A DNA stretch of 22,492 nt from Myxococcota bacterium (GTDB taxonomy: Bacteria > Myxococcota > JACRCW01). Below are positions 101 to 22,492 of this stretch, piece after piece. Made by a program: the position numbers and the translations under genes. The stretch's first letter is position 1. Every line of letters starts with the position of its first letter. Location: the NCBI GenBank assembly GCA_040752415.1, contig JBFMGU010000174.1:1-22492 (forward strand), read 5' to 3'. The notes under the pieces are model-generated. The model worked only from the letters and a program-made list of their open reading frames with translations. It made no database searches and had not been told where the DNA came from.

Positions 101-1996
101 TCAACGCTGCGTTGCCGCCGGCGGGGAATCCGTCGCAGCGGCCAGGTCGAGCCGGCTGTATTCGGCCCAGGAGCCGTCGTAGTTGACCAGCTGTTCCGTC
201 GACACGCCGGTCTGCATGAGCGCGAAGTACACCGCCGCCGAGCGCGTTCCGGATTGACAGTAGGTCATCACCCGCGAGTCAGCGGACAAGCCGTGCTCGC
301 GGAACAAGGCGCGGAGCTCGTCGGGGGCGCGCAGCGTGCCGTTGGAGCGCTTGAACACGTGTACCCACTCCAGGTGCACCGCGTCCGGAATGTGACCGGC
401 GCGCCCGGCCTCGTCGTGCTGCTTCCTGCCGTCGAACTCGTCGCGCGAGCGCGTGTCCACGAACGTCACGCCGGAGGCGCGGAAGGACGCGAGCTCACTC
501 CACGTCAGGCGCGGCGGCTGCAAGGGCGCGGAGAGCACCACGTTGCCTTCCGTCGACGCACGCGGGACGCCCCCGGCCAGCCCATGCCCTGCTTCCTTCC
601 ACGCCAGCAGACCTCCGTCGAGGATGCGCACTTCCCGACCCGCCACCTCCCGAAGCGTCCACCACAGCCGATGCGCCTCGGGACCACCGTCGGTGTAGAG
701 CACCACCACGGACTCCGACGACACGCCGCGAGCGCGAAGCGCGCGTTCGAGCTCGTCGCGGGGACGGGAGAGACCCGGGATGGGCGCCTCCGTCGAGTAG
801 TCATCACGCCAGAGCGGTTGCGCGGACGGGATGTGGCCCTCCTCGAAACGCTTCCTGGGACGGACGTCGAGCAGGACCAAGCGAGGACTTCCCAGCGCTC
901 GCGCCAGCTCACGGACGCTCACCATGACGTCGGGACGCCCGTAACCCGCGGCCTTGGCGTCGTTTCCAAAGGAGCCCAGCGCGGCCGTCGCGTCGTCGAC
1001 GCTGAAGGCATACGCGTCCGGCGTCACCGTGGATGCAGCGGATGGCTGTGATGACGCGGCCTGCTCTCCCAACAACGGCGTGCGCACCTCACGCACGGGC
1101 GGCTGATGCAACACCCACCCCAACACCAGCACCCCGGCGCCAACCGCGCTTGCGGTCAGCGTGCCCCAGCGCGTCGACGGTAGGAGCCGGGTCAGCGGCC
1201 ACGCTTCCTGGGCGAAGAAGCTCTTCGGAAACGTCTCCACGCCGGCGAAACCGAGGCGGGGCGGCGGCTGGTCGGGCATGGACGCGGTGCCGAAGATCCA
1301 GTCCCACAGGCTGAAGATGATTCCGAAGTTCACCGTGGTGCGCGCATCCCCGTCGTAGTTGTGGTGCCAGATGTGCATCCGCGGGCTGTTGAGGATGTAG
1401 CGCCACCACCCGTGACCCAGGTCCAGGTTGGCGTGATTGAGATGCCCAATCAGTGTGCCGAAGATGGCGTGGACCATCACCGCTGTCGACGAGAAGCCGA
1501 GGAACGCCAGCGGCACATAGAGGAGCGCGCGGTAGACCACCACCTCCGTCCACTGGAAGCGGAAGGAGACAATCCAGTCCATCTCCCCGTCGACCACGCT
1601 GTGGTGGACCTTGTGCGTCTCCCACAGGAATCCCACGCGGTGCAGCAGGTTGTGCACGCCCCACTGGAGGAAATCCACGACGAGAAGCGCCACCACGATC
1701 TGCACCGCCACCGGCCAGCCCGACGCCAGGTTGCGGTAGACCCAGGTGGTCAGCCCCGCCTGCGCCAACGCGTGATCCAGGTGCGGCAGGAGGTGCGTGG
1801 CGGCGATGCCGTAGAGGATGACGCCGAGGAAGTGGCCGTTGAAGACGAGGTGCAGGAAGTCGGAGAGCAGGGTCCCGCGCAGCTGCTTCTGCTCCTTGCG
1901 CCACGGGAAGAAGTGCTCCAGCACCGCCACCACGACGGAGATGAGCGCCAGGGAGAGCGGGTAGAGATAGAGCGCCAGGAGGGACATTGCGCCCAC
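101..1996 (-). CDS. Sterol desaturase/fatty-acid hydroxylase family membrane diiron domain fused to a two-domain rhodanese (sulfurtransferase)
   Basis: N-half is hydrophobic with His boxes HNLLH, HKVHH, HLNH, HIWHH and the NFGIIFSLWDWIFGT motif. C-half has DVR..FEEGHIPSA, LDGGLLAW, DTRS..EFDG, GHIPDA, active loop YCQSGTRS (Cys codon 257-259) and NYDGSWAEY. One continuous frame. Start is GTG 1996 or ATG 1987. Confidence 0.92.
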   Translation of the reverse strand: MGAMSLLALYLYPLSLALISVVVAVLEHFFPWRKEQKQLRGTLLSDFLHLVFNGHFLGVILYGIAATHLLPHLDHALAQAGLTTWVYRNLASGWPVAVQIVVALLVVDFLQWGVHNLLHRVGFLWETHKVHHSVVDGEMDWIVSFRFQWTEVVVYRALLYVPLAFLGFSSTAVMVHAIFGTLIGHLNHANLDLGHGWWRYILNSPRMHIWHHNYDGDARTTVNFGIIFSLWDWIFGTASMPDQPPPRLGFAGVETFPKSFFAQEAWPLTRLLPSTRWGTLTASAVGAGVLVLGWVLHQPPVREVRTPLLGEQAASSQPSAASTVTPDAYAFSVDDATAALGSFGNDAKAAGYGRPDVMVSVRELARALGSPRLVLLDVRPRKRFEEGHIPSAQPLWRDDYSTEAPIPGLSRPRDELERALRARGVSSESVVVLYTDGGPEAHRLWWTLREVAGREVRILDGGLLAWKEAGHGLAGGVPRASTEGNVVLSAPLQPPRLTWSELASFRASGVTFVDTRSRDEFDGRKQHDEAGRAGHIPDAVHLEWVHVFKRSNGTLRAPDELRALFREHGLSADSRVMTYCQSGTRSAAVYFALMQTGVSTEQLVNYDGSWAEYSRLDLAAATDSPPAATQR

Positions 1997-2027: not shown

Positions 2028-3461
2028 TCAGCCCTCGCCAGTGCCGAGGTTGTAGCGCTTCAGCAGCGTGTAGAGGTGCTTGCGGTCAATGCCCGCTTCC
2101 CGCGCCGCCGACGAGATCTGCCCGCCGGACTTCTCCAGCAGCCGACGCACGTACGCCTCCTCGAACTGCTCGACGAGCTTCTCCTTGGCGTCCTTGAACG
2201 GCAGCGTCAGGTCCGCCTTGAGCTCCAGCGTGTCTCCCCCCCAGGTGGCCGGCATGGCGGCAGGCACCGCGTCCATGGGGATGGGCGGCGGACCGGCCAC
2301 GTTCATGGCAATGGGCGAGGGCGGCAGGATGGCGTCGAGGTCGTCGGCGTCCGCGAGGTAGAGCGCGCGCTCGATGACGTTGCGCAGCTCCCGCACGTTG
2401 CCCGGCCAGCGGTGCTGCGCCAGGCGGTGCATCAAGGCCGGGGTGAGACGCTGCAGCAGCTTGTCGCCGCCGGGGAGTTGCCGCGCGAACTGCTCGGCCA
2501 GCAGCGGAATGTCCTCGAGACGGTCGCGCAGCGGCGGGAGCGGCAACGTGAACACCGCGAGACGGAAGTAGAGATCCTCGCGGAACTTCCCCGCCTGCAC
2601 GTGCTGCCACAGGTCGCGTTGACTGGCGGCGATGATGCGCGCCTCCAGCTTGATGGTCTGGCTGCTGCCCACGCGGTGGAACTCCCGCTCCTCCAACGCG
2701 CGCAACAGCTTGGGCTGCAGGTCCAGCCGGAGATCGGCAAGCTCGTCGATGAACAGCGTGCCGCCCGCGGCCAGCTCCAACGCGCCACGTCGGGTGCTGG
2801 TGGCCCCGGTGAACGCCCCGCGCTCATGACCAAACAGCTCGCTCTCGATCAGGTTCTCCGCAATGGCACCGCAATCCACGACGACAAACGGCTTGCCCTT
2901 GCGACTGCTGGCATCATGCAGCGCCCGCGCCACCGCGCCCTTGCCGCAGCCGGTCTCGCCCAGGATGACCACGGTGGCGTCGGTGGCGGAGACGCGGTTG
3001 AGCAGGGAGAAGAGCTGGCGCATGCGCGGGCTGCGCCCCACCAGCTGGCCGAAATGGCTCTCCGGCCACATGGGCACGGCCATGGGCTTGAACAGCGGCT
3101 CAAAACGCAGCTGCACGTCACCGGCTTTGATGACGGCGCCGGGGCGCAGGTAGGCCTCCCGGATGCGGTACTGGTCGATCCAGAGGCCATTGGTGGAGCC
3201 CAGGTCGCGCAGCAGGTAGCCGTCGCCCTGGCTGATGAGCTCGAAGTGATCCCGGCTCACCGTCGGGTCGGGCAGCACCAGGTCATTGTCCTCACCCTTC
3301 CCTACCCGCACCCGCTCCCCGGTGATCTCCAGGACCGCGCCGGAGCGCGCACCGGTGAGCACGGTGAGCTGACAGCGCCGCTCCGTGGGCAGGCCGGGCT
3401 CCGCGGCGCTCAGCTCCGTCTTGACGTCGACGAACTCGGGACCCTGACGGGTGGTGACCAC
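2028..3461 (-). CDS. FHA-domain sigma54-dependent enhancer-binding protein (FHA-AAA+-Fis HTH)
   Basis: FHA motifs [16 protein letters not shown] and DLGSTNG. Walker [23 protein letters not shown], Walker [23 protein letters not shown]-terminal [19 protein letters not shown]. Confidence 0.95.
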
Positions 3462-3580
3462 GGCGTGTCCTTGGACGTTGCATCCCCGACGCGACCGCGG
3501 CGGGCGTTCCGGGCGTCTTCCTTAGGCCGCGCTGCTGTGCGCACACAACTGTCGGGCCCACGCGCCCACCCGCCGCTGGC

Positions 3581-3586
3581 TTGACA
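3581..3586 (+). promoter_or_regulatory. Candidate sigma70 -35 hexamer upstream of kinase 1
   Basis: Perfect TTGACA within GGCTTGACA, starting 72 nt before the TTG start. The same 9-mer precedes kinase 2. The -10 element is poor. Confidence 0.35.
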
Positions 3587-3652
3587 TGCTCACGCGCAAC
3601 GGCTGCCATGAGCGCACGCGGACGGCCACCGGCGTGACGGGGAGCGGGAACG

Positions 3653-4957
3653 TTGAGTGATGAGGGATTCAGGCCCTTTGTGCTGGGCCGCTACAACGTG
3701 CTCAAGCGCCTGGGACAAGGCGGCATGGCGGAGGTGCTCCTGGCCGAGCAACCTGGGCCGAAGGGGTTCGCCCGTCGGGTGACCATCAAGCGCGTGTTGC
3801 CGGAGCACGCAAGCGCCACCGAGTTCCTGCAGATGTTCCGCGACGAGGCCCGCCTGGGCATGCTGTTGCAGCACCCCAACATCGTCCAGGTGCTGGACTT
3901 CCACGACGACCCGCTGGGCGCGTACCTGGTCATGGAGTTCGTGCACGGGGCGGACCTCAGCGCGTTGCTGCGGGCCATGTCGCAACAGAAGCGGCACCTG
4001 CCGGTGAAGGTCTCCGTGTTCGTGGCGTGGAGCATGTTGCGCGGCCTGAGCCATGCGCACTCCGCGTGCAGCCCCGACGGAAAACCGCTGCAGCTGGTGC
4101 ACCGCGACGTCTCCCCGTCCAACGTGTTCCTCTCGCTGAGCGGCCAGGTGAAGCTGGGGGACTTTGGCGTGGCCAAGGCCCTGGGTCGCAGCACGCAGAC
4201 GCAGGTGGGCGTGCTCAAGGGCAAGCTCCGCTACATGGCGCCGGAGACGTTGCTCACGGGCCAGGTGGACGCGCGCGCGGACCTGTTCGCGGCGGGCGTG
4301 GTCTTGTGGGAGAGCCTGGCCACGCGCGTGCTGTTCACCGGCAAGACCGACTTCAACGTGGCAGAGGCGGTGATGAAGCAGCCGTTCCAGGCGCCCTCCA
4401 CGCTCAATCCCGAGGTGCCGCCGCTGCTGGACGAGGTGGTGCGTCGCGCGTTGGAGAAGGATCCGCTGAAGCGCTTCCAGACCGCGCGGGAGTTCGAGCA
4501 GGCGCTGTTTGCGCTGTTGGGCGGCAGCCACCCCGACGCACTGGGTGAATCCCTCTCCGAGCTGGTGCGCACGCACACGCGGGTCATCCCCGCCGCCGAG
4601 CTGGACGCGCTGCCCCGCCCGGTGCGCCAGGAGAAGCTGGCCGCGCCCGCGCCGCTGGACCTCCCGGGTCTGCCCCCCACGTCGAGCGTGCACACCGAGC
4701 CCACCCGCGTGGCGCCCGCTCCCAAGGTGGCGGACTGGTGGGAGGAACCGCCGCCGCCGCCCCCGCCGCCCGTCGACGACTTCTTTGCGCCGCTGCTCAA
4801 CAGCCCCCGTGACGCGCCCGCTCCGTCGTGGCCACCCAACAACGAGGCGACCATCCCCGTGGGACACGCTGCCCTCGTCGAGGAAACGCTGCTGGAGGAT
4901 CCCGCGGAGCTGGAGGCCACGATCCCGGATCACCCGCGACGCGACGGCTCGCGGTGA
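3653..4957 (+). CDS. Hanks-type Ser/Thr protein kinase 1 (cytoplasmic, Pro-rich tail)
   Basis: LGQGGMAEV, VTIK, HPNIV, HRDVSPSN, DFG, YMAPE, DLFAAG. TTG start with GGAG at 3641. No transmembrane segment. Confidence 0.95.
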   Translation: MSDEGFRPFVLGRYNVLKRLGQGGMAEVLLAEQPGPKGFARRVTIKRVLPEHASATEFLQMFRDEARLGMLLQHPNIVQVLDFHDDPLGAYLVMEFVHGADLSALLRAMSQQKRHLPVKVSVFVAWSMLRGLSHAHSACSPDGKPLQLVHRDVSPSNVFLSLSGQVKLGDFGVAKALGRSTQTQVGVLKGKLRYMAPETLLTGQVDARADLFAAGVVLWESLATRVLFTGKTDFNVAEAVMKQPFQAPSTLNPEVPPLLDEVVRRALEKDPLKRFQTAREFEQALFALLGGSHPDALGESLSELVRTHTRVIPAAELDALPRPVRQEKLAAPAPLDLPGLPPTSSVHTEPTRVAPAPKVADWWEEPPPPPPPPVDDFFAPLLNSPRDAPAPSWPPNNEATIPVGHAALVEETLLEDPAELEATIPDHPRRDGSR

Positions 4958-4968: not shown

Positions 4969-5025
4969 AGGTGATCCGCCACAAGTTGGATTTTCCGTCG
5001 GAGAGTGCGCGTGGAAGAGATGCCA

Positions 5026-6276
5026 ATGCAGCCCTTTGTGCTGGGCCGCTACAACGTGCTCAAGCGGCTGGGAGCGGGCGGCATGGCGGAGGTGCTGTTG
5101 GCGGAGCAACCCGGGCCCGCCGGCTTCTCACGCCTGGTCACCATCAAGCGCATCCTGGAGAAACACGCCCGCGACGCCGAGTTCATCCGGATGTTCGTCG
5201 ACGAGGCGCGCGTCTCCATGAGCCTGCAGCACCCCAACATCGTCCAGGTGTTGGACTTCCAGCAGCAGGGCAGTGACCACTTCATGGTGCTGGAGTTCGT
5301 GCACGGCGCGGACCTGGACCACCTCATCAACGCCCTCGCGCAGCGGTCACGCATCCTGCCGGTCCCGGTGACGGTGTTCGTGTTGTGGTTGGTGCTGCGC
5401 GGGCTGTCCTACGCGCACACCGCGGTGGGTCCCCGGGGTGAGCCGCTCATGCTCATCCACCGCGACATCTCGCCGGGAAACGTGCTGCTCTCCGCCACCG
5501 GGCAGGTGAAGCTCACGGACTTTGGCGTGGCCAAGGCGCGCGGCCGGGCCACGCAGACGCGGGTGGGCATCCTCAAGGGCAAGCTGCACTACATGGCGCC
5601 CGAGGCCATTGTGAGCGGGACCGTGGACCAGCGCGCGGACCTGTTCTCCGTGGGCGTGACGTTGTGGGAGGCCCTGACGGGGCGCCCGCTGTACAACGGC
5701 GAGACCGACTTCGTGGTGGCGCAGGCGGTGGTGACGCAGCCCTTCGTGGCGCCAAGCGTGCACCACCCCGCGGTCCCCCCGGAGGTGGACGAGGTGTGTC
5801 GACGGGCGCTGGAGCCGGACCCGGGCAAGCGCTTCCAGACCGCACGGCAGATGGAGCAGGCGCTGTTCGAGTGCATGCGCGGGCACCACCCCGACGAGCT
5901 GGGCGAGCAGTTGTCCGACCTGCTGAAGGCCCACCTGGACATTCCCTCGGTGGCGGACCTGGCCGCCCTGCCCCGCCCCGCGGCGTGGGAGCGCATGGAG
6001 CCCGCGCGCATCTCCTGGCCGCCGGTGGAGCGCGTCCACGGGGTCATCCCGGCCAGCGCCCTGGGTCCCGACGGGGCCAACGCCACCACGCTCCCGCTCG
6101 CGTCTCCTCGTCCCCTGGAGGATGACTTCTTCAACCCGCCGCAGGCCCCGCCCGTCGACGGGAGCACCACCACGCGCATGCCGCCGGAGGAGCTCAAGGT
6201 GTTGCGGGAGAAGTCCACGCCCCCGCTTCCCGACGACGACTTCTTCAACGTGGGCGCACCGCCACCTCGGAAGTGA
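5026..6276 (+). CDS. Hanks-type Ser/Thr protein kinase 2, paralogue of kinase 1
   Basis: LGAGGMAEV, VTIK, HRDISPGN, DFG, YMAPE. ATG 5026 (or 5020) after GGAAGAG is preferred over GTG 5005 because it aligns with the kinase 1 N-terminus (PFVLGRYNVLKRLG). Confidence 0.95.
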   Translation: MQPFVLGRYNVLKRLGAGGMAEVLLAEQPGPAGFSRLVTIKRILEKHARDAEFIRMFVDEARVSMSLQHPNIVQVLDFQQQGSDHFMVLEFVHGADLDHLINALAQRSRILPVPVTVFVLWLVLRGLSYAHTAVGPRGEPLMLIHRDISPGNVLLSATGQVKLTDFGVAKARGRATQTRVGILKGKLHYMAPEAIVSGTVDQRADLFSVGVTLWEALTGRPLYNGETDFVVAQAVVTQPFVAPSVHHPAVPPEVDEVCRRALEPDPGKRFQTARQMEQALFECMRGHHPDELGEQLSDLLKAHLDIPSVADLAALPRPAAWERMEPARISWPPVERVHGVIPASALGPDGANATTLPLASPRPLEDDFFNPPQAPPVDGSTTTRMPPEELKVLREKSTPPLPDDDFFNVGAPPPRK

Positions 6277-7876: not shown

Positions 7877-8395
7877 TCACCGCGCCAGCACGGCGTCCGC
7901 GAGCTCATCCGCCAGGGCCACGCACGCGCGCTCCAGCGCCAACCGACGCATGTCCTCCGTCTGGCTGACGCTGTCCGCCACGACGAGCTCCGCGCTCCCC
8001 GTGCGGTCCCCGCTCTCCCAGATCACGTTGCCATTCGCGTCGCGCAGCCGCGCCTTGCCGCGCACGCGCAACACGCTCAGGCCCGCCGCGGTCCCGCCGG
8101 GACGGAACACCGGGATGTTGCCGCCTTCAATCGCCACGATGTCGCCCTCGAGGCGGAAGTCCGTCTTCGACGAGGGAAGCGGGTGGCCCAGGCGTTGTCG
8201 CAGCCGCTCGGTCACCATGGCGCCCGCAATGCCTTCCGCGGTTCGGTCCGTCAGCGGTGACACGAAGATGGACGGCGTGTCGTGCTCCGGGGAGCCGCCG
8301 CCGTAGGTGAACGCATACGCGCAACCGCCGGCCGCCAAGAGCACCAGCAGCGCCAGCCTCGTCCAAACACGTTTCCCACGGCTCCGCGCGTCCAT
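7877..8395 (-). CDS. lptE: LptE-like LPS-assembly lipoprotein (172 aa; the real part of the 877-aa track ORF)
   Basis: MDARSRGKRVWTRLALLVLLAAGG-CAYAF lipobox resembles the LptE GCGY/F start. SIFVSPLTDRT, DFRLEGDI, LRDANGNVIW and a C-terminal helix RRLALERACVALADEL match the LptE pattern. Confidence 0.7.
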   Translation of the reverse strand: MDARSRGKRVWTRLALLVLLAAGGCAYAFTYGGGSPEHDTPSIFVSPLTDRTAEGIAGAMVTERLRQRLGHPLPSSKTDFRLEGDIVAIEGGNIPVFRPGGTAAGLSVLRVRGKARLRDANGNVIWESGDRTGSAELVVADSVSQTEDMRRLALERACVALADELADAVLAR

Positions 8396-8542
8396 GCGTT
8401 GCGCGCCTGTAGCACCCCGCGCGCGCTCCGCGCACCGGTGTTTCCCGGCGTCCCTCGGAATTCTGAGGTTTTCCGCGACCCGCAAGCGCCTGTTCTCACT
8501 GCCACAATCCGCTGGCAGGGGAGTTGCTTGAGGGGGCCGCGC

Positions 8543-11134
8543 ATGCGTTGCCTCTTCGTGCCGCTGTTGGCCGTGTTGTGCGTGGGATGCCTCGGTGAGG
8601 AACCCGAGCTGGGTCGCGTGGCCCACCGGGTGTGGTCGGAGCCGGAGCACCTCCGCTTCGACGACACACGCGTGGGAACCCACCGTTCCGCGGTGTTGAC
8701 GCTGCGCAGCGAGGGAGCGGGCGCGTTGCACCTGGGACTGCGTGTGGAGCCCGCGGATTCCGCGTTTGGCGTGGACCGCACCAGCGCCACCGTCACCGCC
8801 GGTCAGGCGGCACAGGTCACCGTGAGCTTCCTGGCGGCGGTGGAAGGGCCGTTCCACGGCGAGCTGGTGGTCACCCATGACGGTGAACCTGACGACGACG
8901 GGAGCCGCGAGGTGCGCGTGCCACTCTCCGCGCTCGCCGTTGCGCCGCCCGACTGCGACGACGGAAACCCCTGCACGCTGGACCAGCCCGACCCGGTGCT
9001 CGAGGGCGTGTGCCTCCACGTCCCCATCCGCGCCGCCTGTGACGACGGAAACGCGTGCACCCACGACGACACGTGCGAAGCGGGATTGTGCGTGGGGCTC
9101 CCCATCAGCTGCAATGACGACGTCGCTTGCACCGCCGACAGCTGCGACCCCGGCCTTGGCTGTGTGCACCTCCCCACCGCCGCGCTGTGCGACGACGGTG
9201 ATCCATGCACCCAGGACGCGTGCACCGGTGACGACGGAGATGAACGCGGGTGCATCCATCCCGTGGCCGTGGATGGCACGCTGTGCGGCGTTCCCTCGTG
9301 CGCGGAGATGCCGGTGTGCGTCATGGGCCAGTGCCACGCCATGCCCGCGCCCGACGGGTTCCCGTGCGAGGACGGCGACCCGTGCACCCAGGGTGACTCC
9401 TGCCACGCGGGGAGCTGTACCGCCGGTGCCGGGGGCGCGTTGACGACGAGCGAACCGGTGGTACTGCAGGAAGTCTGGGTTGACGACGCCGAGACCCCGC
9501 CGCCGCTCGACGCCGGCATCGGCGCGGGGATGGCGCAGGAGGACGCGGGAGCGGAACGTCGGCATGATGAGGAGAGTCCCGACGCAGGCGCCGCGACGTC
9601 GGTGGTCTACGTCCCGGACCAGCCGCTCTGGGGCCAATGGCCCGTGTCCCTCGACGGAATGGCCATGTTGTGGCGCGATGCCATCAATCCCAATGGCGAC
9701 GAGATGCTCGTGTTGTGGCGGGGCTCGTCGTACCCGGGCGGATGTCTCTCCGATCCCGCGGCGTGCACCGTTGCGCCGGCGTGCGCCCCCAACACCCTCC
9801 AGGCCACCGACACCGCCACCCGCCTCAACCTCACCCTCACCACCACGTCGGGCATGGCCACCAACAACCACACTCTGGACCTGGATGACATCCATCGCCG
9901 CTCCGCCGGCGCGGGGAACCCGGAGTCGCCACCAGCGCCAGGGTCCGTGGCGAATGCCGCGGGCGTGGCGACGGTGGAAGGGATGGTGGGCGCGGCGATC
10001 GTCAACTACGCGAGCAACTGCACCGCGTGCACCACCAATGACATCACGGATGGAACCATCGGCTGCACCCCAGAGGGACCCGCGTTGGCGGTGTTCCGCG
10101 CGTGGCCCAGTGGATTCAACGTCGAGGACGCCCTGTGGCTGGGCGGTGGGCCGGAGGCGGTGCTGCTCCCGAACCTGGTGCGGGGACGGGATGGCCTGCC
10201 GCTTCTCGCCGTCACGGAGTGGAACCGGGAGCTCTTTGTGGCGTACGCGCTGCACCTGCCGGGTTCCTGCGTGACGCCAGACTGCGACTGCAACCTCGAC
10301 TGCGATGACTGCTGCGACGAGCCCTGCCCCTGCCAGGACAACATCACGCTCGTGGTGCGGCGGTACCTGCTCGACGCCAGTGAGGCGTCGATGCCGCGCA
10401 TGCTCTTCGCCGCGGAACAGCACGTGGTCGTCTCGTTCCAGGAGAGGCCGGACGCGGAGGCCGGGTTCCTCTCGTCGCTGCGCATGGACCACGTGGATGG
10501 ACGGCTGCACCTCACGTGGCTGCAGGACTCCGAGGTGATCCCCCAGATGCCCGAGTGTGAGCCCAGTGGGATCTATCCGTATGCCGCCACCATGAGCGCG
10601 TATGACGCCTGGGTCTCGACGGCGGATGACAGTGGCGTGCTGGGAGCGCCGTCGCTGTTGCGCTCCCGCGTGGGAGCGGTGGGATACGCGCAGGATGCCG
10701 GTGGAACCGCGATCCTGGAGTGGAGCCGCGTGGGCGTGGGGGACTTCATCTGCGCACCCATCGACACGCTCGTCGCCACGCGCGGGGAGGATGGCGAAGA
10801 GCTCATGCAGCGCGTGGGGCCGGGGGAACAGAACCTGACGGCGGCGCGGGCGCAGATGCTCCTGGGAAGGGCCACGCTGCTGGCGGTGGATGCCAGGGGA
10901 ACACTTGCCGTGGCGGCCGCGCCCGCGGCGGGATTCCCGGCAACCGTGGCCACCGGAGGATGGAACGGGGAGGCGAACGCAAGGTTGTGGCCGGGCGCGG
11001 CGCCGCGCGGAGTCGACGTCAGCGTCGGAGCCGTGGTGGGCGCGGTGGCGGAGATTGGGATCTGGAACAACGCGATGCCGCGCTCAGGACTCGTGATCAC
11101 CCAGGTGGGGTGCGGACTGGGGAACGAACCGTGA
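8543..11134 (+). CDS. Large surface lipoprotein: Ig-like (ASH/choice-of-anchor D-like) domain, CDDGNxCTxD Cys-rich repeats, DAG linker, uncharacterised C-terminal region
   Basis: GAGGGG RBS before ATG 8543. Signal MRCLFVPLLAVLCVG-C. P.HLRFDDTRVG...LTLRS.G...L pattern. Five CDDG(N/D)xCTxD-like repeats at about 8954-9418. Confidence 0.85.
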   Translation: MRCLFVPLLAVLCVGCLGEEPELGRVAHRVWSEPEHLRFDDTRVGTHRSAVLTLRSEGAGALHLGLRVEPADSAFGVDRTSATVTAGQAAQVTVSFLAAVEGPFHGELVVTHDGEPDDDGSREVRVPLSALAVAPPDCDDGNPCTLDQPDPVLEGVCLHVPIRAACDDGNACTHDDTCEAGLCVGLPISCNDDVACTADSCDPGLGCVHLPTAALCDDGDPCTQDACTGDDGDERGCIHPVAVDGTLCGVPSCAEMPVCVMGQCHAMPAPDGFPCEDGDPCTQGDSCHAGSCTAGAGGALTTSEPVVLQEVWVDDAETPPPLDAGIGAGMAQEDAGAERRHDEESPDAGAATSVVYVPDQPLWGQWPVSLDGMAMLWRDAINPNGDEMLVLWRGSSYPGGCLSDPAACTVAPACAPNTLQATDTATRLNLTLTTTSGMATNNHTLDLDDIHRRSAGAGNPESPPAPGSVANAAGVATVEGMVGAAIVNYASNCTACTTNDITDGTIGCTPEGPALAVFRAWPSGFNVEDALWLGGGPEAVLLPNLVRGRDGLPLLAVTEWNRELFVAYALHLPGSCVTPDCDCNLDCDDCCDEPCPCQDNITLVVRRYLLDASEASMPRMLFAAEQHVVVSFQERPDAEAGFLSSLRMDHVDGRLHLTWLQDSEVIPQMPECEPSGIYPYAATMSAYDAWVSTADDSGVLGAPSLLRSRVGAVGYAQDAGGTAILEWSRVGVGDFICAPIDTLVATRGEDGEELMQRVGPGEQNLTAARAQMLLGRATLLAVDARGTLAVAAAPAAGFPATVATGGWNGEANARLWPGAAPRGVDVSVGAVVGAVAEIGIWNNAMPRSGLVITQVGCGLGNEP

Positions 11135-11145
11135 GGCGGTGATGA

Positions 11146-11273
11146 CCGAGGGAAAGCGGTACTTCATACCGCAGTCCGAAAGGGCTGGCGCCCGTGGCGA
11201 CGACGGAAACAGCGTCACCCGAGCCAAAGCGGTATTGCAGACCGCACTCCCAAAGGGCTGGCGCCCGCGGCGA
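11146..11273. repeat. Tandem pair of 55-bp REP-like double-hairpin units between convergent genes
   Basis: 11146-11200 and 11219-11273 are 47/55 identical. Each has GCGGT-N7-ACCGC and GGGC-TGGC-GCCC stems. On the minus strand each stem is followed by TTT. Confidence 0.85.
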
Positions 11274-11276
11274 ACG

Positions 11277-12473
11277 TCAGGGAAGACAGACGCGCGGACC
11301 AAAAGGCAGTGTCTGGTCCACCGCAATCCCCAGCGTCATCTCGTCGCGGTGCGTGGTGCCCATGTAGAAATGCGTCTCCTCGGGCGTACCGCCAATCGCG
11401 TTCAAGTCACCAGGACCCGTCTCATAACCCGCGGCCACGACGACGGCGCGGGAACCGCCACTCGGATCACGCACGATCATTCGCGTCCCACGCGCCGGAC
11501 GCGCCGCGCTCGTCCAGTACATGTTCACGTACCAGGCCTCGTGCAACACCGGGAACAACGTGGGACTCCCAATCCCCGCACCGTAGAAGTCCCCGCCCTC
11601 CAACGGCGCCCAGTCCTGCGTCCGGTGCATCACCAACCCGCTCCGTGACTGCGACAACGCATAGTGCTCCGCCAGCTCCTCCGTCGACGTGCTGGGGTAC
11701 GGCTCCGGCTCCTCCTGCGTCACCAGGTGCGCCTCCAACACCATCGGCCCCGTCGCCGGCATGGCCAGGTGATCACCGTTGTCGTTCACCCGCGGCATCT
11801 CCCCCACCTCCACCTCACACGGCCCGCGCGAAGGCTCCATGAACCCGATCTCGACGGTGAACGCCCCCACCTGCTCCACCCCGCCACTCACGTACGTGTC
11901 CGCCACCACCCACAACGTCCCCGCGCTGACGTCGGCGCGCGCGTGCTTGTCGCCGCGGTCCAGGCACGCCTGAGCATCCAGGTCCGTCAGGATGTGCACG
12001 TCCACGTCGACACCCGTGCCGTCGTACACCGCCACGCTCAGGAAGCCGTCCGCCGGAACGTCGACGCGGAACACCACCTCCGGACCACCCTCGTTCGTGT
12101 TGGGCGCGCAGTTGTACGCGTCCAGCGTGCCGGGAGGCTCCAGGCTCGTGTCGCCCTCGTGGTGGTACGGGAAGGTGTCCACGCAGATGACGCCCGGCGG
12201 ACATTCCGGAGGACCCGCGTCGACCGAGGCGTCGGGCTCACCGGTGCTGGCGTCGGGGACCGCAGCGTCCGGTGACGTCGTGGCGTCGGGCAGCGCGGCA
12301 TCAGGCACTCCCGCATCCGTGGGCAGCGTGCCGGCGTCCGACGTGCTGGCGTCGGGGCGCGCGCCTGCGTCCGTGGTCCCGGCGTCATCTCCCGACGAGG
12401 ACGCGCCCGTGCATGCGGAAACGACGAGAACAGCGAGAACGAAGGCGGTCCGAAGCTCCATGCGCCACGCCAT
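11277..12473 (-). CDS. Lipoprotein with DAG/PDA low-complexity linker, PPC-like beta-sandwich and uncharacterised (possibly DPBB-like) C-terminal domain
   Basis: Lipobox VLVVSA-C. Ten DA(G/S/A/T) units. GPEVVFRVDVPADGFLSV..DVDVHIL..C pattern. Start is ATG 12473 or 12461. Confidence 0.85.
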   Translation of the reverse strand: MAWRMELRTAFVLAVLVVSACTGASSSGDDAGTTDAGARPDASTSDAGTLPTDAGVPDAALPDATTSPDAAVPDASTGEPDASVDAGPPECPPGVICVDTFPYHHEGDTSLEPPGTLDAYNCAPNTNEGGPEVVFRVDVPADGFLSVAVYDGTGVDVDVHILTDLDAQACLDRGDKHARADVSAGTLWVVADTYVSGGVEQVGAFTVEIGFMEPSRGPCEVEVGEMPRVNDNGDHLAMPATGPMVLEAHLVTQEEPEPYPSTSTEELAEHYALSQSRSGLVMHRTQDWAPLEGGDFYGAGIGSPTLFPVLHEAWYVNMYWTSAARPARGTRMIVRDPSGGSRAVVVAAGYETGPGDLNAIGGTPEETHFYMGTTHRDEMTLGIAVDQTLPFGPRVCLP

Positions 12474-12494
12474 ACCGCGCCACGCAGCGACGAG

Positions 12495-13274
12495 CTATCG
12501 GTCTTCCCACCTGGGCGGACGACGCTCGAAGAACGCGGCCACCGCCTCCGCGTGGTCACGACTGCCCCAGCTGGTGGCAAACAGACGCGCCTGCAGCTCC
12601 ATGCGTGGCGGCGGAGACAGCTCGCGCATGGTGCGCTTGAGCATCCGCACCGCAATGGGCGCGTTCTCCGCAATCTGCGCCGCCAGCTCCCGCGCCCGCG
12701 CCAGCCCCTGCCCCTTCTCCACCACCTCGTCGACGAGGCCGGCCTCCCGCGCCTGCTCCGCGCTGAGCTGCTCACGGAAGAGCAACATGCGCATGGCGCG
12801 ACGCTCCCCCACGTCACGCACCAGCCGGGCAAACGCTCCCCACCCCGCAATCACGCCAAACTGCAGCTGCTTCCACGCCAGGTACGCGTGGCTCTCCGCA
12901 ACCCGGATGTCCGTGGCCATGAACGCCTCACAGCCGCCGCCCATGGCATAGCCGTTCAGCACGCCGATGACGGGGACGGAGAGGTCCTCCAAGGCGGCCA
13001 ACGCCTCCTGCATCTTGAGACTCATGGCGCGACCACTCTCCGCGGAATCCAGCGCCTGGAACGCCTTGAGGTCACCACCCGCGCAGAAGGCCTCCTCGCC
13101 CGCGCCGGTGAAGATGACCGCGCGCACGTCCTTGTCGTCGGCCAGCTTGTCCACGGCGGCGCGCAGCGCGTCCATGGTGGCCAGGTCCACCGCGTTCTTC
13201 ACGTCGGGGCGGTTGAGGATCAGGAGCGCCGCGGGGCCCTCCTTCTGCAACAGCACACTGCTCATCTCAGTCAC
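12495..13274 (-). CDS. Crotonase-superfamily enzyme (enoyl-CoA hydratase/isomerase family, ECHDC1-like)
   Basis: LNRPDVKNA, AFCAGGDL, NGYAMGGGCE, DIRVA, AEQAREAGLVDEVV. The second catalytic Glu position is Gln (WKQLQFG). Start is GTG 13274 (8-nt overlap with the upstream gene) or ATG 13265. Confidence 0.93.
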   Translation of the reverse strand: MTEMSSVLLQKEGPAALLILNRPDVKNAVDLATMDALRAAVDKLADDKDVRAVIFTGAGEEAFCAGGDLKAFQALDSAESGRAMSLKMQEALAALEDLSVPVIGVLNGYAMGGGCEAFMATDIRVAESHAYLAWKQLQFGVIAGWGAFARLVRDVGERRAMRMLLFREQLSAEQAREAGLVDEVVEKGQGLARARELAAQIAENAPIAVRMLKRTMRELSPPPRMELQARLFATSWGSRDHAEAVAAFFERRPPRWEDR

Positions 13275-13932
13275 CCAGGTGCTTCGGGTACACGCGCTTG
13301 CCGCCGCTCTCGTAGCTCAGCAGCCGCAGGTGCCATTGCTCGATGCTCTTCTTCCCCGGCGTATGCACCCACGCCACGCGCTCCACCATCCCAACGCCCT
13401 TGCAGAAGGTCACGTCGGTCACCTTGCTCTCGTCGTGGGGCAGCTTGATGGTGCTGCGCGTCTGCGCGCACCCGGTGAAGCGGCCCGCCGGCACGTCCGC
13501 CTGCGCGTCCAGGGAGATGAGCTCAAAGCGCTCCGCGGTCTTGACGTCGTGGATGGCCATCCACTTGTGGCCCACCTCCATGGGCTCCTCCAGCAGGTAG
13601 CGCGTCCCGTCAAAGATGCCGCGCGGCCGCACCTCGAAGCGCGCCTCCAGCGGCTTGTAGCGTTTCCCGTCGGAGACCATGGGCAGCATCTGCGCCACGT
13701 AACGACCCGGCGCCTCCTCGCGCGCAATGGCCACCTGGTAGGTCTGCTTGCGGCCCAGGAACGCGTCCTCGTAGACCCAGCGGTCACCCACCTTCAGCGG
13801 GAAATACAGGCTGCTCAGCCGTTCCGAGGTTGCCGCACGTCGGGAGGTGCTCTTGCCACCCGCGCACGCGCCCGCCGTCACCGCCAGCCAGGGCACCAAC
13901 ACCAGACACACCGCCACGCCGGAAAAGCGCAT
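13267..13932 (-). CDS. Hypothetical beta-rich lipoprotein (YFPLxxGxxWxY ... VPAGxF family, DUF3108/TapB-like)
   Basis: Signal MRFSGVAVCLVLVPWLAVTAGA-C. Motifs YFPLKVGDRWVY, DVPAGRFTGC, FCKGVGMV. Tightly coupled to the crotonase gene. Confidence 0.75.
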   Translation of the reverse strand: MRFSGVAVCLVLVPWLAVTAGACAGGKSTSRRAATSERLSSLYFPLKVGDRWVYEDAFLGRKQTYQVAIAREEAPGRYVAQMLPMVSDGKRYKPLEARFEVRPRGIFDGTRYLLEEPMEVGHKWMAIHDVKTAERFELISLDAQADVPAGRFTGCAQTRSTIKLPHDESKVTDVTFCKGVGMVERVAWVHTPGKKSIEQWHLRLLSYESGGKRVYPKHLGD

Positions 13933-13999
13933 GACGCTACGTGTATCAGGTGGCCCCACCCGATGCCCAAAGAATGACTGAGATCAACCGGGTTGACAT

Positions 14000-14926
14000 T
14001 CAGGCCGCGGCGCCCTTGGGCTTCCACGCGCCGGCCTGCGCATACTTGCTGGGCAGCGTGCGCCCCAGGATGCGACCCATGGTGCGGGTCACCGCGGCCA
14101 CCTTCTCCACGTCGACGCCGGTGTGCAGGCCCATGCCGTCCAGCATGTAGACCAGGTCCTCGGTGGCGAGGTTGCCGGAAGCGCCCGGAGCGTACGGGCA
14201 GCCGCCCAGGCCACCGGCCGCGCTGTCAAAGGCGCGCACGCCGGCCTCCAGCCCGGCCAGGGCGTTGGCCAGCGCGGTGCCGCGGGTGTCATGCAGGTGC
14301 AGCGCCACGCGGTCCAGCGGGATGCGCTTCTGCACGGCCTGGAGCACCTCCCGGATCTGGCGCGGCGTTCCGACGCCAATCGTGTCGCCCAGGCTGATCT
14401 GGTACGCGCCCAGCTCGGTGAGCTGCGCCGCCAGGTCCGCAATGCGGCCGGGGTCCTGCCGTCCCTCGTACGGGCAGCCGAACGCGGTGCTGACGTAGGC
14501 GCGGAAGCGGACCCCGTCGGCCCTGGCCTTGCGACACAGCTCCCCGTAGCGGTCCAGCGTCTCCTGCACGGACGCGTTGATGTTCTTCTTGTTGTGCGTC
14601 TCCGACGACGAGAGGACCAGCGCCACCTCCCGCATCCCCGCCGCCACGGCGTTCTCATAGCCCTTGAGGTTGGGAACCAGCGCCGCGTAGTCCACGCCTT
14701 CCTTGCGCCTGATGCCGCGGGCCACCTCGGCCTGGTCAGCGAGGGGCGGAATCCAGCGCGGGTTGACGAAGCTGGTGATCTCGATGCGGGTGATTCCCGC
14801 GTCCACCAGCGACTCGATCATGGCGATCTTGGCCTCGGTCTCGACGAGCGAAGCCTCGTTCTGGAGCCCGTCGCGCGGGCCCACCTCCATGATGCTGACG
14901 TGGTTGTCGTTGTTGCTGGCGGCCAT
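14000..14926 (-). CDS. hmgL: Hydroxymethylglutaryl-CoA lyase
   Basis: EVGPRDGLQNE, SFVNPRWIP, FGCPYEG, ISLGDTIG, LHLHDTRG, GGLGGCPYAPGASGNLATED. ATG 14926 after AGGTG is preferred to GTG 14983. Confidence 0.95.
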   Translation of the reverse strand: MAASNNDNHVSIMEVGPRDGLQNEASLVETEAKIAMIESLVDAGITRIEITSFVNPRWIPPLADQAEVARGIRRKEGVDYAALVPNLKGYENAVAAGMREVALVLSSSETHNKKNINASVQETLDRYGELCRKARADGVRFRAYVSTAFGCPYEGRQDPGRIADLAAQLTELGAYQISLGDTIGVGTPRQIREVLQAVQKRIPLDRVALHLHDTRGTALANALAGLEAGVRAFDSAAGGLGGCPYAPGASGNLATEDLVYMLDGMGLHTGVDVEKVAAVTRTMGRILGRTLPSKYAQAGAWKPKGAAA

Positions 14927-15040
14927 CTGGCACCTGACGCCCCGCGGCGGGCTCCTCCGCCTACGTTCTAGCGGGAGCGTCACGCTTTGGCATGCCCCCG
15001 GCTACCGGGCTTTCGTGACGGGTGCGGTGGACCCGACCGG

Positions 15041-15448
15041 TCAGGCGGCCTTGCGACCCACGTGGCTGCGGACCCAGTCGATGATCTCCTGGGTGCTGGC
15101 GCCCGGGGTGAAGATCTCGGAGACGCCGCGCTTCTTGAGCTCGGCAATGTCCTCCTCCGGGATGATGCCCCCGCCGAACACGAGGATGTCGGGGGCGTTC
15201 TTGTCCTTGAGGAGGTCAATGACGCGGGGCATCAGCGTCATGTGCGCGCCGCTCATGATGGAGAGGCCAATGGCGTCGACGTCTTCCTGGATGGCGGCGT
15301 TGACGATCATCTCGGGCGTCTGGTGCAGGCCGGTGTAGATGACCTCGAAGCCGGCATCCCGGAGGGCACGCGCCACCACCTTGGCCCCGCGGTCATGACC
15401 GTCCAGGCCGGGTTTGCCAATGAGAACGCGGATGGTTCGCTCAGCCAC
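15041..15448 (-). CDS. Stand-alone cobalamin-binding subunit of an acyl-CoA mutase (methylmalonyl-CoA mutase C-terminal/IcmB-like)
   Basis: [10 protein letters not shown] (DxHxxG), [25 protein letters not shown]. 135 aa with a GAGGA RBS. Confidence 0.95.
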
Positions 15449-17844: not shown

Positions 17845-18849
17845 CTACCGACGTGGAACCGCGGTCGGGGAAGCGCGCGGATCGACCTCGTCCTTCGGAC
17901 CCGGTTGCTTGACCTCGCCAGCTGGCCGGCTCGCGGTCTCCATGTAGCCGATGAGGAGCTGGACTTCGCTATCGCTTAGCTTCAGATTCGGCATCTGGAC
18001 CTGCTTGTACCGGGCGTAGAGGTCCATGGCGGTGGGGTCTTTCTCCGCGAGCATCTGGTCGGGTTCCTTCAGCCAACGTGAGAGCCAGGCCCGGTCCCGC
18101 TTGGCCACCACGCCCCGCAGGTCCGGTCCCACGGTGTCTCCCGCGCCAATGGTGTGGCAGGCCTGGCAGCGTCGCCGGAAGAGGTCCTCACCGGGGTCCA
18201 CGTGTTTGATGCGGGGCGCATCCGCATAGCTCTTCCGGCTGGTGTTCGCGCGACGGTAGTTGAACAGGTCGTCGCCCAGCACCGCGGCCAGCACCTTGGG
18301 GTTGTCGAACGCGGAGCGCTTCCGCCACTGCCCCGTGGCCTCATTGCCGACGATCAGGCTCGCGGTGTGGTCGGCGCGGGCCTCTCCCTCCCGGTACAAG
18401 CCCAGCTTCTTGCGCAGCAGCGTGATGTCCTCCGCCTTGCCGGTGAGGAACTGCCAGCCGGGCCCAGCCTTGAACTTCTCCGCGTACTCCTTGAGCGCCA
18501 CCGGCGTGTCGTGCTCCGGGTCGATGCTGATGGAGTACATGAAGATGTCGCGGCCCACGCGGTCGCCGAGCGCCTCCTGGACCTTGCGCAGGTTGGCGGT
18601 CTCCAACGGACACGCGTTGCCGCAGCCCACGAAGATGAAGTTGATGAGGACCACCTTGTCCTTGATGACGTCGTCGTAGAAGCGCAGGGGTTTTCCGTCC
18701 TGGTTCACCAGCGTGACGTTGGGGAAGTAGCCGGCTCCCCAGGGCGAGCCCGCGGGCGCCGCCGCCGTGGGACCGCCGCTGAGCATCAGCCCGGTGGTCA
18801 GGAGCAGGAGGAGGGCACGCATCACCCTCGGGTCGGTAAAGGTTTTCAT
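17845..18849 (-). CDS. Sco1/SenC copper chaperone fused to a C-terminal cytochrome c
   Basis: Signal peptide ending AAA. Sco CGNACP (CxxxCP), SISIDPEHDTP and conserved His (ADHTA). Haem motif CQACH, GPDL and axial Met (QMPN). GGAGG lies 8 nt before ATG 18849. Confidence 0.95.
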   Translation of the reverse strand: MKTFTDPRVMRALLLLLTTGLMLSGGPTAAAPAGSPWGAGYFPNVTLVNQDGKPLRFYDDVIKDKVVLINFIFVGCGNACPLETANLRKVQEALGDRVGRDIFMYSISIDPEHDTPVALKEYAEKFKAGPGWQFLTGKAEDITLLRKKLGLYREGEARADHTASLIVGNEATGQWRKRSAFDNPKVLAAVLGDDLFNYRRANTSRKSYADAPRIKHVDPGEDLFRRRCQACHTIGAGDTVGPDLRGVVAKRDRAWLSRWLKEPDQMLAEKDPTAMDLYARYKQVQMPNLKLSDSEVQLLIGYMETASRPAGEVKQPGPKDEVDPRASPTAVPRR

Positions 18850-18878
18850 CGTCGAGGCCTCCGCGGGACCGTGCTGGC

Positions 18879-22199
<3,321 letters not shown>

Positions 22200-22492
22200 G
22201 ACGCGGTCCGCAGCCAATCCGTGCGAGGGATGACGCGGAAAGACCACTACGCGCCGGCTTCGCGCGTGCGTCGACGTTAGAGTCATGGAAAGCCCTTGGA
22301 CCCGGCGCGCTGCCAGGTGCGGATTCCTGCCCATCATGGCCCCCTGGTTTCACGCACCGCGCCTTCGTCCGGAACGTGCGGCTCCTTCGGGCACAGGTGC
22401 GTCCGACCTTGGAATGTACGGCTTGCTTATTCTGCCCGCAGATACCCCGGCAGGGCCCGTCCTCGTCGACACGCAGGAGGGTCACGGCAACA

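Follow-up and report, generated by a model that had tools for sequence, protein, structure and literature searches.

The stretch of DNA analysed here (the window) is a contig of 22,492 nucleotides (nt) from a Myxococcota bacterium (assembly GCA_040752415.1, contig JBFMGU010000174.1), and the gene under study lies on the reverse strand at its beginning (101..1996). The window is one entire contig and only 100 nt are available past the stop codon of the gene. Frame analysis and Pfam searches showed a single open reading frame (ORF) of 631 amino acids starting from a GTG codon and encoding, in this order, a diiron hydroxylase domain, a sixth transmembrane helix (TM6), a linker and a tandem rhodanese; the version of the product in the protein database (P0002) starts at Met4 (ATG) and counts 628 amino acids. 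A sequence-only reading of the same DNA had described the uninterrupted frame, the complete set of His boxes and the two rhodanese domains, and our analysis recovered all of them with exactly the same motif coordinates.

The membrane domain of the FA_hydroxylase superfamily spans residues 1-275 (1172..1996, reverse strand, as for all the features of this gene) and was delimited by Pfam matches, hydropathy, lysine plus arginine (K+R) counts, DSSP analysis of the structural models and the Scs7p fold. It carries the His boxes HNLLH (H115 and H119, residues 115-119, 1640..1654) and HKVHH (H128, H131 and H132, residues 128-132, 1601..1615), the HLNH motif (H185 and H188, residues 185-188, 1433..1444) and the HIWHH box (H208, H211 and H212, residues 208-212, 1361..1375). 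These ten histidines were invariant in an alignment of 149 domains, consisting of 53 fused and 21 stand-alone proteins of the Myxococcota type and of 25 rhodanese-linked and 50 stand-alone proteins of the Bacteroidota type, together with a signature including E27, Q36, R40, D46, N53, D108, R146, E151, Y155 and other residues. TM6 (residues 276-303, 1088..1171) was located by a peak in the family-averaged hydropathy and by a helix at 276-297 in both structural models, and persists as a vestige in stand-alone sister proteins. It is followed by a conserved linker and an N-terminal extension of the rhodanese (residues 304-352, 941..1087), with conserved positions G310, E311, A314, S316, Q317 and P318 and, further on, F343 and G344. 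The first rhodanese domain (residues 353-475, 572..940) is non-catalytic, its active Cys being replaced by an invariant Asp436 (codon 689-691). The second one (residues 495-620, 137..514) is catalytic, with Cys580 (codon 257-259) within a CQSGTRS loop, the CQSGTR motif occupying residues 580-585 (242-259) and being followed by YDGSWAEY at residues 606-613 (158-181).

Family assignment was examined by Pfam and NCBIfam searches. The FA_hydroxylase model (PF04116) matched residues 101-237 with an E value of 1.2e-26 and 94.1 bits over a cut-off of 31, which places the protein in this superfamily, and the Rhodanese model matched two stretches with an E value of 1.1e-30. The fused protein scored 87.7 bits with the OlsE equivalog model (NF052566, cut-off 475), and is thus not assigned to OlsE; two stand-alone relatives returned similar values of 87.4 and 82.2 bits. 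The score with the SseA equivalog model (NF008557) was 98.9 bits against a cut-off of 250; the active loop of SseA is of the CG[ST]GVT type, while that of the fused protein reads CQSGTR. The presence of two domains, with Cys580 in the six-residue loop of the second and Asp436 at the equivalent place of the first, identified a tandem rhodanese. No Lactamase_B hit was returned by the Pfam scan of the fused protein, which therefore falls outside the CstB/Blh group.

Both Pfam domains occurred in all of the 120 homologues listed (54-62% identity, about 97% coverage), which came from many independent assemblies, namely metagenome-assembled genomes (MAGs) of Myxococcales, Sandaracinus, Polyangiales and Bradymonadia, and from Tara and JGI metagenomes. 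In the alignment of these 120 proteins the ten His residues, Asp436, Arg585 and Ser586 were invariant and Cys580 was kept in at least 90% of the sequences. Since every listed homologue carries both domains, with invariant histidines and a retained Cys580, the fusion is not a chance event but a genuine and conserved arrangement. As for the region around 950-1250, where a frameshift had been considered possible, a 268-nt contig from one public DNA run matched positions 1018-1285 with zero differences, spanning the domain junction. This run, which may be the source sample, contained a small share of the window words and within the gene covered 1018-1285 only. No RNA run with the window sequence was found among the sequencing runs listed.

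The AlphaFold model of the whole protein had a predicted local distance difference test score (pLDDT) of 90.9 and a predicted template modelling score (pTM) of 0.76, and the model of the N-domain alone returned values of 88.7 and 0.84. DSSP analysis of the models assigned helices at residues 2-29, 43-79, 96-120, 149-165, 170-188 and 276-297. The best solved fold for the N-domain was that of Scs7p (4zr0/4zr1), with a Z score of 5.8, a root-mean-square deviation of 5.0-5.2 and 169-171 aligned residues, the next entry having a Z score of 3.9. Foldseek gave a weak match of the N-domain to the Scs7p fold (E 1.8) and nothing at E values of 0.001 or lower when this domain was searched alone, and a 60-sequence profile of the N-domain returned no match among the Protein Data Bank (PDB) sequences at E values up to 1. 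With the whole model Foldseek retrieved rhodaneses only. The rhodanese part ranked closest to 1e0c (1.6e-29), followed by 1uar and 3hwi, all ahead of SseA, with target-normalised TM-scores of 0.85-0.88 against thiosulfate sulfurtransferases. In the Protein Atlas only generic 'sterol desaturase family' clusters were found. Prediction of a complex between the separately encoded hydroxylase and rhodanese of one locus (L131) gave a score of 0.00; it was run without controls and counts as evidence neither way.

The membrane topology was then predicted from the family-averaged hydropathy, which placed helices at about 5-26, 47-69, 93-113 and 150-185, the latter as a hairpin, and located the sixth helix in the region that joins the two modules, at about 283-303. 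The loop at residues 27-46 has a mean K+R count of 4.8, compared with 0.8 in the 27 residues after TM6. Because of the position of TM6 between the modules, the charge bias and the exported nature of related proteins, the N-terminus is predicted to be outside, the His boxes at the cytoplasmic face and the rhodanese pair in the periplasm. Among these relatives, P0129 has the reversed order, with a signal peptide, the rhodanese and then the hydroxylase, and has no TM6, and in split-gene loci the rhodaneses bear lipoprotein signals. The closest free rhodanese, P0131 (406 amino acids, from a metagenome), combines a tandem rhodanese with a lipobox/lipoprotein signal and a haem c motif (CxxCH), and is a further solution for keeping such a rhodanese, along with a redox partner, at the membrane. 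The partner genes described below also look exported, with a Tat-type RRRFLK motif in the sulfite dehydrogenase and a lipoprotein-like N-terminus in the GH113-like protein. TPM domains, which are usually extracytoplasmic, were found by Pfam at the N-terminus of other members of the hydroxylase fold (P0225 and P0250). Further fusions of this fold were noticed among P0225, P0250, P0234 and P0177, comprising the N-terminal TPM domains, an FA_desaturase with two FA_hydroxylase stretches and a double FA_hydroxylase. Cleavage by signal peptidase at the conserved A314-x-S316 past TM6 was considered and judged unlikely, since over 10 residues separate the motif from the end of the hydrophobic stretch.

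We next analysed the genomic neighbourhood in Myxococcota. A pattern search in contigs of one genome per species gave 601 matches, 582 of them encoding a relative, from which 80 loci were retained; genes were called by our own script and clustered by BLAST, yielding 78 loci including the window, after three without a callable focal gene had been dropped. Neighbours were counted by tblastn, independently of the gene calls, in the 43 loci whose flanks reached at least 6 kb on the downstream side and 3 kb on the upstream side. A GH113-like gene was observed in 24 of the 28 fused loci and in 0/15 stand-alone loci, and a gene for a molybdenum/cytochrome c protein in 20/28 and 2/15 respectively (Fisher p values of 2.6e-8 and 3.7e-4, which are overstated since the species are related). 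Both partners occurred in 19 fused loci, usually on one strand in the order fused gene, GH113, molybdenum/cytochrome c. Of the two stand-alone exceptions with the molybdenum gene, L077 is probably a frameshifted fused gene and L058 carries a 150-residue tail. The molybdenum/cytochrome c gene encodes a fused SorT-SorU protein, scoring 498.5 bits with the SorT model (cut-off 570) and 95 bits with the SorU model (cut-off 100) and matching 4pw3 at 3e-115 and 4pw9_B at 8.5e-20 in the PDB. The GH113-like gene is a true GH113 relative, with 151 bits in Pfam and a PDB match to 3civ at 9e-33. GH113 was also considered as a core partner of the system and was discarded, as none of 80 Bacteroidota-type loci contains it. 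Four fused loci without SorT-SorU (L036, L044, L046 and L047) carry a divergent upstream gene on the opposite strand at position -1, encoding a DsrE/DsrF-like protein with a signal peptide that may be an alternative periplasmic sulfur acceptor, and L019 additionally has an SQR-like flavoprotein and a metallo-beta-lactamase (MBL) gene.

The same association was met again in another phylum. Among 1.84 billion cluster representatives, 192 matched at E values of 1e-30 or lower, and a Pfam scan of 42 of them (34 long multi-stretch proteins and 8 others) showed that only P0129 and P0145 combine both families, in reversed order. Both domains were carried by 108 of the 120 listed relatives of P0129, whose names include Crocinitomix, Flavobacteriales and Bacteroidetes MAGs; type IX secretion system and GldN genes lie near these Bacteroidota-type loci. 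In 80 metagenome loci, a tandem rhodanese was found directly upstream of the hydroxylase in 26, as one ORF in 17, as two adjacent ORFs in 7 and cut by the contig start in 2. In the 46 loci whose upstream flank measured 3 kb or more, a sulfite-oxidase-family gene was present in 13/16 rhodanese-linked versus 0/30 other loci. The encoded molybdenum enzyme scored 247 bits with SorA, 192 with SorT and 187 with SoxC, all under the cut-offs, and its gene precedes that of a small CxxCH cytochrome. This SorA-like sulfite dehydrogenase belongs to a lineage different from the SorT-SorU of Myxococcota. In a quick tree of the rhodaneses, with weak deep nodes, the Myxococcota modules and P0131, which share the N-terminal extension, formed their own clade (100, starred), and the Bacteroidota modules were scattered among free-standing tandem rhodaneses. 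Since the two fusion orders involve rhodanese lineages without a sister relationship and the molybdenum enzymes belong to different lineages, different rhodaneses and different sulfite dehydrogenases have been recruited to one hydroxylase subfamily.

A sulfur context was also found for part of the stand-alone proteins of the Bacteroidota type. A rhodanese-containing, TauE, CysZ-like or SulP gene occurred within five genes of the hydroxylase in 18 of 52 loci, and in 10 of the 22 with at least three genes on each side, and in 14 Bacteroidota-type loci a small lipoprotein-type rhodanese lies directly upstream of the stand-alone hydroxylase. A recurring block, in which many loci are close kin, consists of TauE, an MBL protein with two rhodanese domains, thioredoxin, a 76-residue membrane ORF, a rhodanese, the hydroxylase, a Crp-type regulator and a CysZ-like gene, the MBL-rhodanese of these clusters being persulfide-dioxygenase-like. 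The remaining stand-alone loci of this type lie beside Kbl-like, GT2 or peptidase genes. The 76-residue membrane ORF has no family match; it was located at L097:9736-9963, between thioredoxin and the small rhodanese, and at the same place in L098-L102, L126 and L165, and it also adjoins the fused genes in L093 and L094. The sequence-only reading had mentioned a link between stand-alone members of the subfamily and sulfur genes, which held in part: Sor-type genes lie by the fused forms and sulfur genes by about a third of the stand-alone Bacteroidota-type proteins, whereas in Myxococcota no tandem rhodanese was detected by tblastn near any of the 15 stand-alone orthologues and a sulfite dehydrogenase only at the two loci mentioned above. 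The YeeE/YedE genes expected beside stand-alone members were absent from every neighbourhood cluster scanned.

The relationship between fused and stand-alone forms was investigated in a tree of 74 N-domains of the Myxococcota type, in which the two were interspersed; it requires 12 changes, and starred branches impose no fewer than 8 of these. Sister pairs of fused and stand-alone proteins share 82-95% identity. The stand-alone proteins stop directly after TM6, and one of them (L054:2848-3819) retains at its end a vestige of the linker motif that follows TM6, a fossil of rhodanese loss; the stand-alone forms therefore represent secondary losses. Stand-alone and fused Myxococcota loci share other synteny, namely lipase-like, UPF0014, ADH and sulfatase genes. 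On the basis of these comparisons, the rhodanese, GH113 and SorT-SorU seem to behave as one unit, while the oxygenase would also work alone; as the stand-alone orthologues remain intact after losing the rhodanese, the oxygenase has a function of its own.

Taken as a whole, the best explanation is that the gene encodes a two-module inner-membrane protein, in which an oxygenase domain is joined to a membrane-tethered periplasmic sulfurtransferase that works with a sulfite dehydrogenase, the diiron domain acting in the same pathway; we assign to this reading a rough probability of 0.55. From the observed architecture, conservation and gene linkages we infer a flow from the rhodanese to the sulfite dehydrogenase and the membership of the oxygenase in the pathway. 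Residues 1-275 would form a five-helix diiron oxygenase with its N-terminus outside and the ten His ligands at the cytoplasmic face, and TM6 would cross outward and display the tandem rhodanese on the periplasmic face. The rhodanese part is most likely a periplasmic, membrane-held thiosulfate or persulfide sulfurtransferase, which would form a persulfide on Cys580 with sulfane sulfur taken from thiosulfate (or from a persulfide or polysulfide). The sulfite freed or handled there would be converted to sulfate by the Tat-exported molybdenum/haem c sulfite dehydrogenase of the SorT-SorU type, from which the electrons would enter the respiratory chain. The diiron domain, which looks catalytically intact, would not be a mere anchor but could act at the cytoplasmic face on a membrane-soluble substrate of the same pathway. 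Its role as a pathway partner rather than a chance anchor is probable because the pairing occurs in both gene orders, adjacency is maintained even where the rhodanese is lipid-anchored, and stand-alone members occur in persulfide/sulfite clusters. A more specific proposal, which we regard as speculative and rather unlikely, is that the domain is a new kind of sulfur-pathway oxygenase from which sulfite would reach the Sor-type dehydrogenase or, where a cluster lacks this enzyme, TauE, CysZ and rhodanese. In one version it would oxidise membrane-dissolved sulfane sulfur or a lipophilic persulfide loaded into the bilayer by the rhodanese; in another it would hydroxylate the sulfonate-bearing carbon of an organosulfur lipid, thus releasing sulfite.

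Other explanations were weighed against this one. The N-domain might be an ordinary lipid hydroxylase of the OlsE or Scs7p kind with its own role, merely holding the rhodanese near the sulfite dehydrogenase and the cytochromes, with no chemical or pathway connection between the two activities. The best family matches are indeed lipid hydroxylases (87.7 bits with OlsE and a Z score of 5.8 with Scs7p), the stand-alone orthologues retain every ligand after loss of the rhodanese, GH113 and SorT-SorU, and lipase-like and acyl-CoA-dehydrogenase-like genes recur as neighbours in Myxococcota, together with one that we take to be GpsA-like. In addition, the use of other anchors by related rhodaneses, such as the lipoprotein signals of P0131 and of the split forms, suggests that membrane tethering itself matters, and the TPM domains of P0225 and P0250 provide other cases of periplasm-type domains placed on the hydroxylase fold. 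However, a single hydroxylase subfamily has acquired rhodaneses of different lineages, and has done so in both gene orders, a lipid-anchored rhodanese is still encoded directly beside the hydroxylase in the 7 split loci, and the small lipoprotein-type rhodanese upstream of stand-alone hydroxylases in 14 loci belongs to MBL-rhodanese/TauE/CysZ clusters. Such recurrence is not expected of an arbitrary anchor, and we consider a purely passive tether possible but doubtful. A bifunctional enzyme working in one compartment, whose diiron site would oxidise a persulfide or thioether on the neighbouring rhodanese with both modules in the cytoplasm, finds precedents in natural fusions of iron oxygenases with rhodanese, the persulfide dioxygenase-rhodanese CstB being an example in the excerpts of two studies (PMC12934615, PMC9163753). 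The conserved extra transmembrane helix between the modules, the charge bias, the signal peptide that precedes the rhodanese in the reversed form without TM6, the lipoprotein rhodaneses of the split forms and the exported appearance of the partners all argue against it, although the cytoplasm is the usual location of tandem rhodaneses such as SseA, and we consider this arrangement very improbable. As the catalytic modules are predicted on opposite membrane faces, the single 'oxygenase-sulfurtransferase' site proposed by the sequence-only reading is likewise unlikely. Finally, an assembly chimera or a frameshift joining two genes could be suspected from the location of the gene at the end of a MAG contig, but the same collinear architecture in all 120 listed homologues from many sources, the full-length matches in three further Myxococcota genomes (G034, G142 and G152) and the identical contig across the junction make the chance of such an artefact negligible.

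Several observations weigh against the proposed sulfurtransferase-sulfite dehydrogenase pathway. The oxygenase keeps all its ligands after repeated loss of the sulfur module, the N-domain tree still requiring 11 changes when the contig-truncated L053 is left out, and many stand-alone members have neighbours unrelated to sulfur (lipase-like, Kbl-like and GT2 genes), which fits an independent lipid function. The linkage has exceptions, as 3/28 fused Myxococcota loci have neither partner and 3/16 rhodanese-linked Bacteroidota-type loci lack the molybdenum enzyme. With the diiron site and the rhodanese predicted on opposite faces, a direct substrate hand-over is hard to picture. A search of the window organism's own genome returned no GH113 or molybdenum enzyme copy linked to the window contig, which ends 100 nt past the stop; the closest GH113 homologue, with 45-48% identity, is located in the interior of a contig, in the vicinity of ftsZ, ftsA and ftsQ, and the best molybdenum enzyme homologue has 32-36% identity. 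The partnership in this organism is thus deduced from its closest relatives (L003, L014 and L040), which have the partners. Moreover, the comparison used related genomes, most of them MAGs; genes were called and clustered by simple scripts of our own, and the trees are quick searches.

The system was compared with characterised ones. As in SorT/SorU of Sinorhizobium meliloti (PDB 4pw3 and 4pw9), described as a periplasmic sulfite dehydrogenase in the portion of the source consulted (PMC4760952), the downstream gene in Myxococcota appears to encode an exported molybdenum enzyme of the sulfite-oxidising type with a c-type cytochrome. Unlike the S. meliloti system, SorT and SorU form here one polypeptide, with scores just under the NCBIfam cut-offs and the gene lying outside the window, and the same portion of that source names no rhodanese-hydroxylase partner. 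CstB of Staphylococcus aureus and Blh, in the sections available of the corresponding reports (PMC12934615, PMC9163753), also join an O2-dependent iron oxygenase to rhodanese in sulfide, persulfide and sulfite metabolism, and MBL-rhodanese genes share clusters with the stand-alone members of the hydroxylase subfamily. However, those proteins are soluble, mononuclear-iron enzymes with a metallo-beta-lactamase fold working in one compartment, whereas the fused protein has a membrane diiron His-box domain and modules predicted on opposite faces; the resemblance would be one of function only. Scs7p, the only solved fold standing out, and rhizobial OlsE share with the N-domain PF04116, the His boxes and a multi-helix membrane domain, but the hydroxylase subfamily has no cytochrome b5 domain, carries its own invariant signature and has predicted periplasmic rhodanese partners, and the N-domain has no PDB sequence match. 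The rhodanese part resembles the tandem thiosulfate sulfurtransferases RhdA of Azotobacter vinelandii (1e0c), 1uar of Thermus and CysA2/CysA3 of Mycobacterium (3hwi, 3aax) in having an inactive and a catalytic domain and a six-residue Cys loop with Arg as the sixth residue. Sulfurtransferases of this type are soluble and cytoplasmic, while the rhodanese of the fused protein is membrane-tethered, predicted to be periplasmic and provided with the N-terminal extension shared with P0131.

No paper describing a pairing of this oxygenase with rhodanese was found in the literature searched, in line with the earlier remark that no characterised enzyme combines them. Since the pairing recurs in two phyla beside sulfite-oxidising enzymes, the results point to an undescribed component of bacterial sulfur oxidation. 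Surveys of sulfur oxidation count SQR, PDO, Sox, Sor, Soe and Apr genes. In the part consulted of a marine-sediment survey, Sor-type sulfite dehydrogenases were found in Myxococcota MAGs only (PMC12345210). Our data suggest that the Sor genes of Myxococcota are usually accompanied by an unstudied membrane protein, the same subfamily occurring with rhodaneses in Bacteroidota. Should the diiron domain be involved in the chemistry, it would represent a new enzyme class for the oxidation of sulfur or organosulfur compounds, and an O2-dependent, membrane-embedded sulfur oxidation would exist in heterotrophic marine Myxococcota and Bacteroidota, uncounted in the gene catalogues of the sulfur cycle. 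If it is not, the protein would still be a clear example from nature of a sulfurtransferase anchored on the outer side of the inner membrane, beside its sulfite dehydrogenase.

As for distribution, 28 of 401 genomes in an even sample of the window's phylum gave matches at E values of 1e-30 or lower, with full-length matches only in the window's own genome (G000) and in G034, G142 and G152, and a match in two pieces in G062. The fusion is lineage-restricted, and all the named records of it that we saw are MAGs. A second sulfur cluster was noticed elsewhere in the genome of the window organism (G000:C445:7533-15375), with labels read from N-terminal sequences only: a tandem rhodanese with a signal peptide (14428-15375), a 4Fe-4S protein, a 961-residue molybdopterin oxidoreductase with a Tat signal (9780-12665), possibly a YeeE-like membrane gene (13282-14409) and possibly an NrfD-like subunit. 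It seems to resemble a thiosulfate, polysulfide or tetrathionate reductase locus. Outside these limits, a sulfite-oxidase-family gene is located at 3322-4818.

The GTG start of the fused gene is directly preceded, at a distance of 31 nt, by a reverse-strand gene for an FHA-domain sigma-54 activator (2028..3461), and the two are probably co-transcribed. A search for the sigma-54 -24/-12 pattern in the window gave 26 matches against 30 expected by chance. The activator was discarded as a conserved regulator of the system, its cluster (C26) occurring in 3 loci only. Two divergent genes for Ser/Thr kinases lie by the activator on the forward strand (3653-4957 and 5005-6276), an arrangement not conserved in relatives; the presence of two kinases and an FHA protein suggests a kinase-to-FHA control in this genome.

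The remainder of the window contains several other features. Two long ORFs on opposite strands overlap (7877-10510, reverse, and 8282-11134, forward), both with weak Pfam matches, one to an LptE-like C-terminus and the other to ASH/Ig-like domains. On the reverse strand, a segment at 12495-14983 encodes an enoyl-CoA hydratase and an HMGL-like lyase with a 230-residue ORF between them (13267-13959) and nearby ORFs without family match, and looks like a leucine or isovalerate-type degradation unit. A SCO1/SenC domain fused to a c-type cytochrome (17845-18882, reverse) overlaps the end of a gene for a 1152-residue protein with multicopper-oxidase, Big_9 and cadherin-like domains (18879-22337, reverse), and the two are possibly a copper-delivery and oxidase pair.

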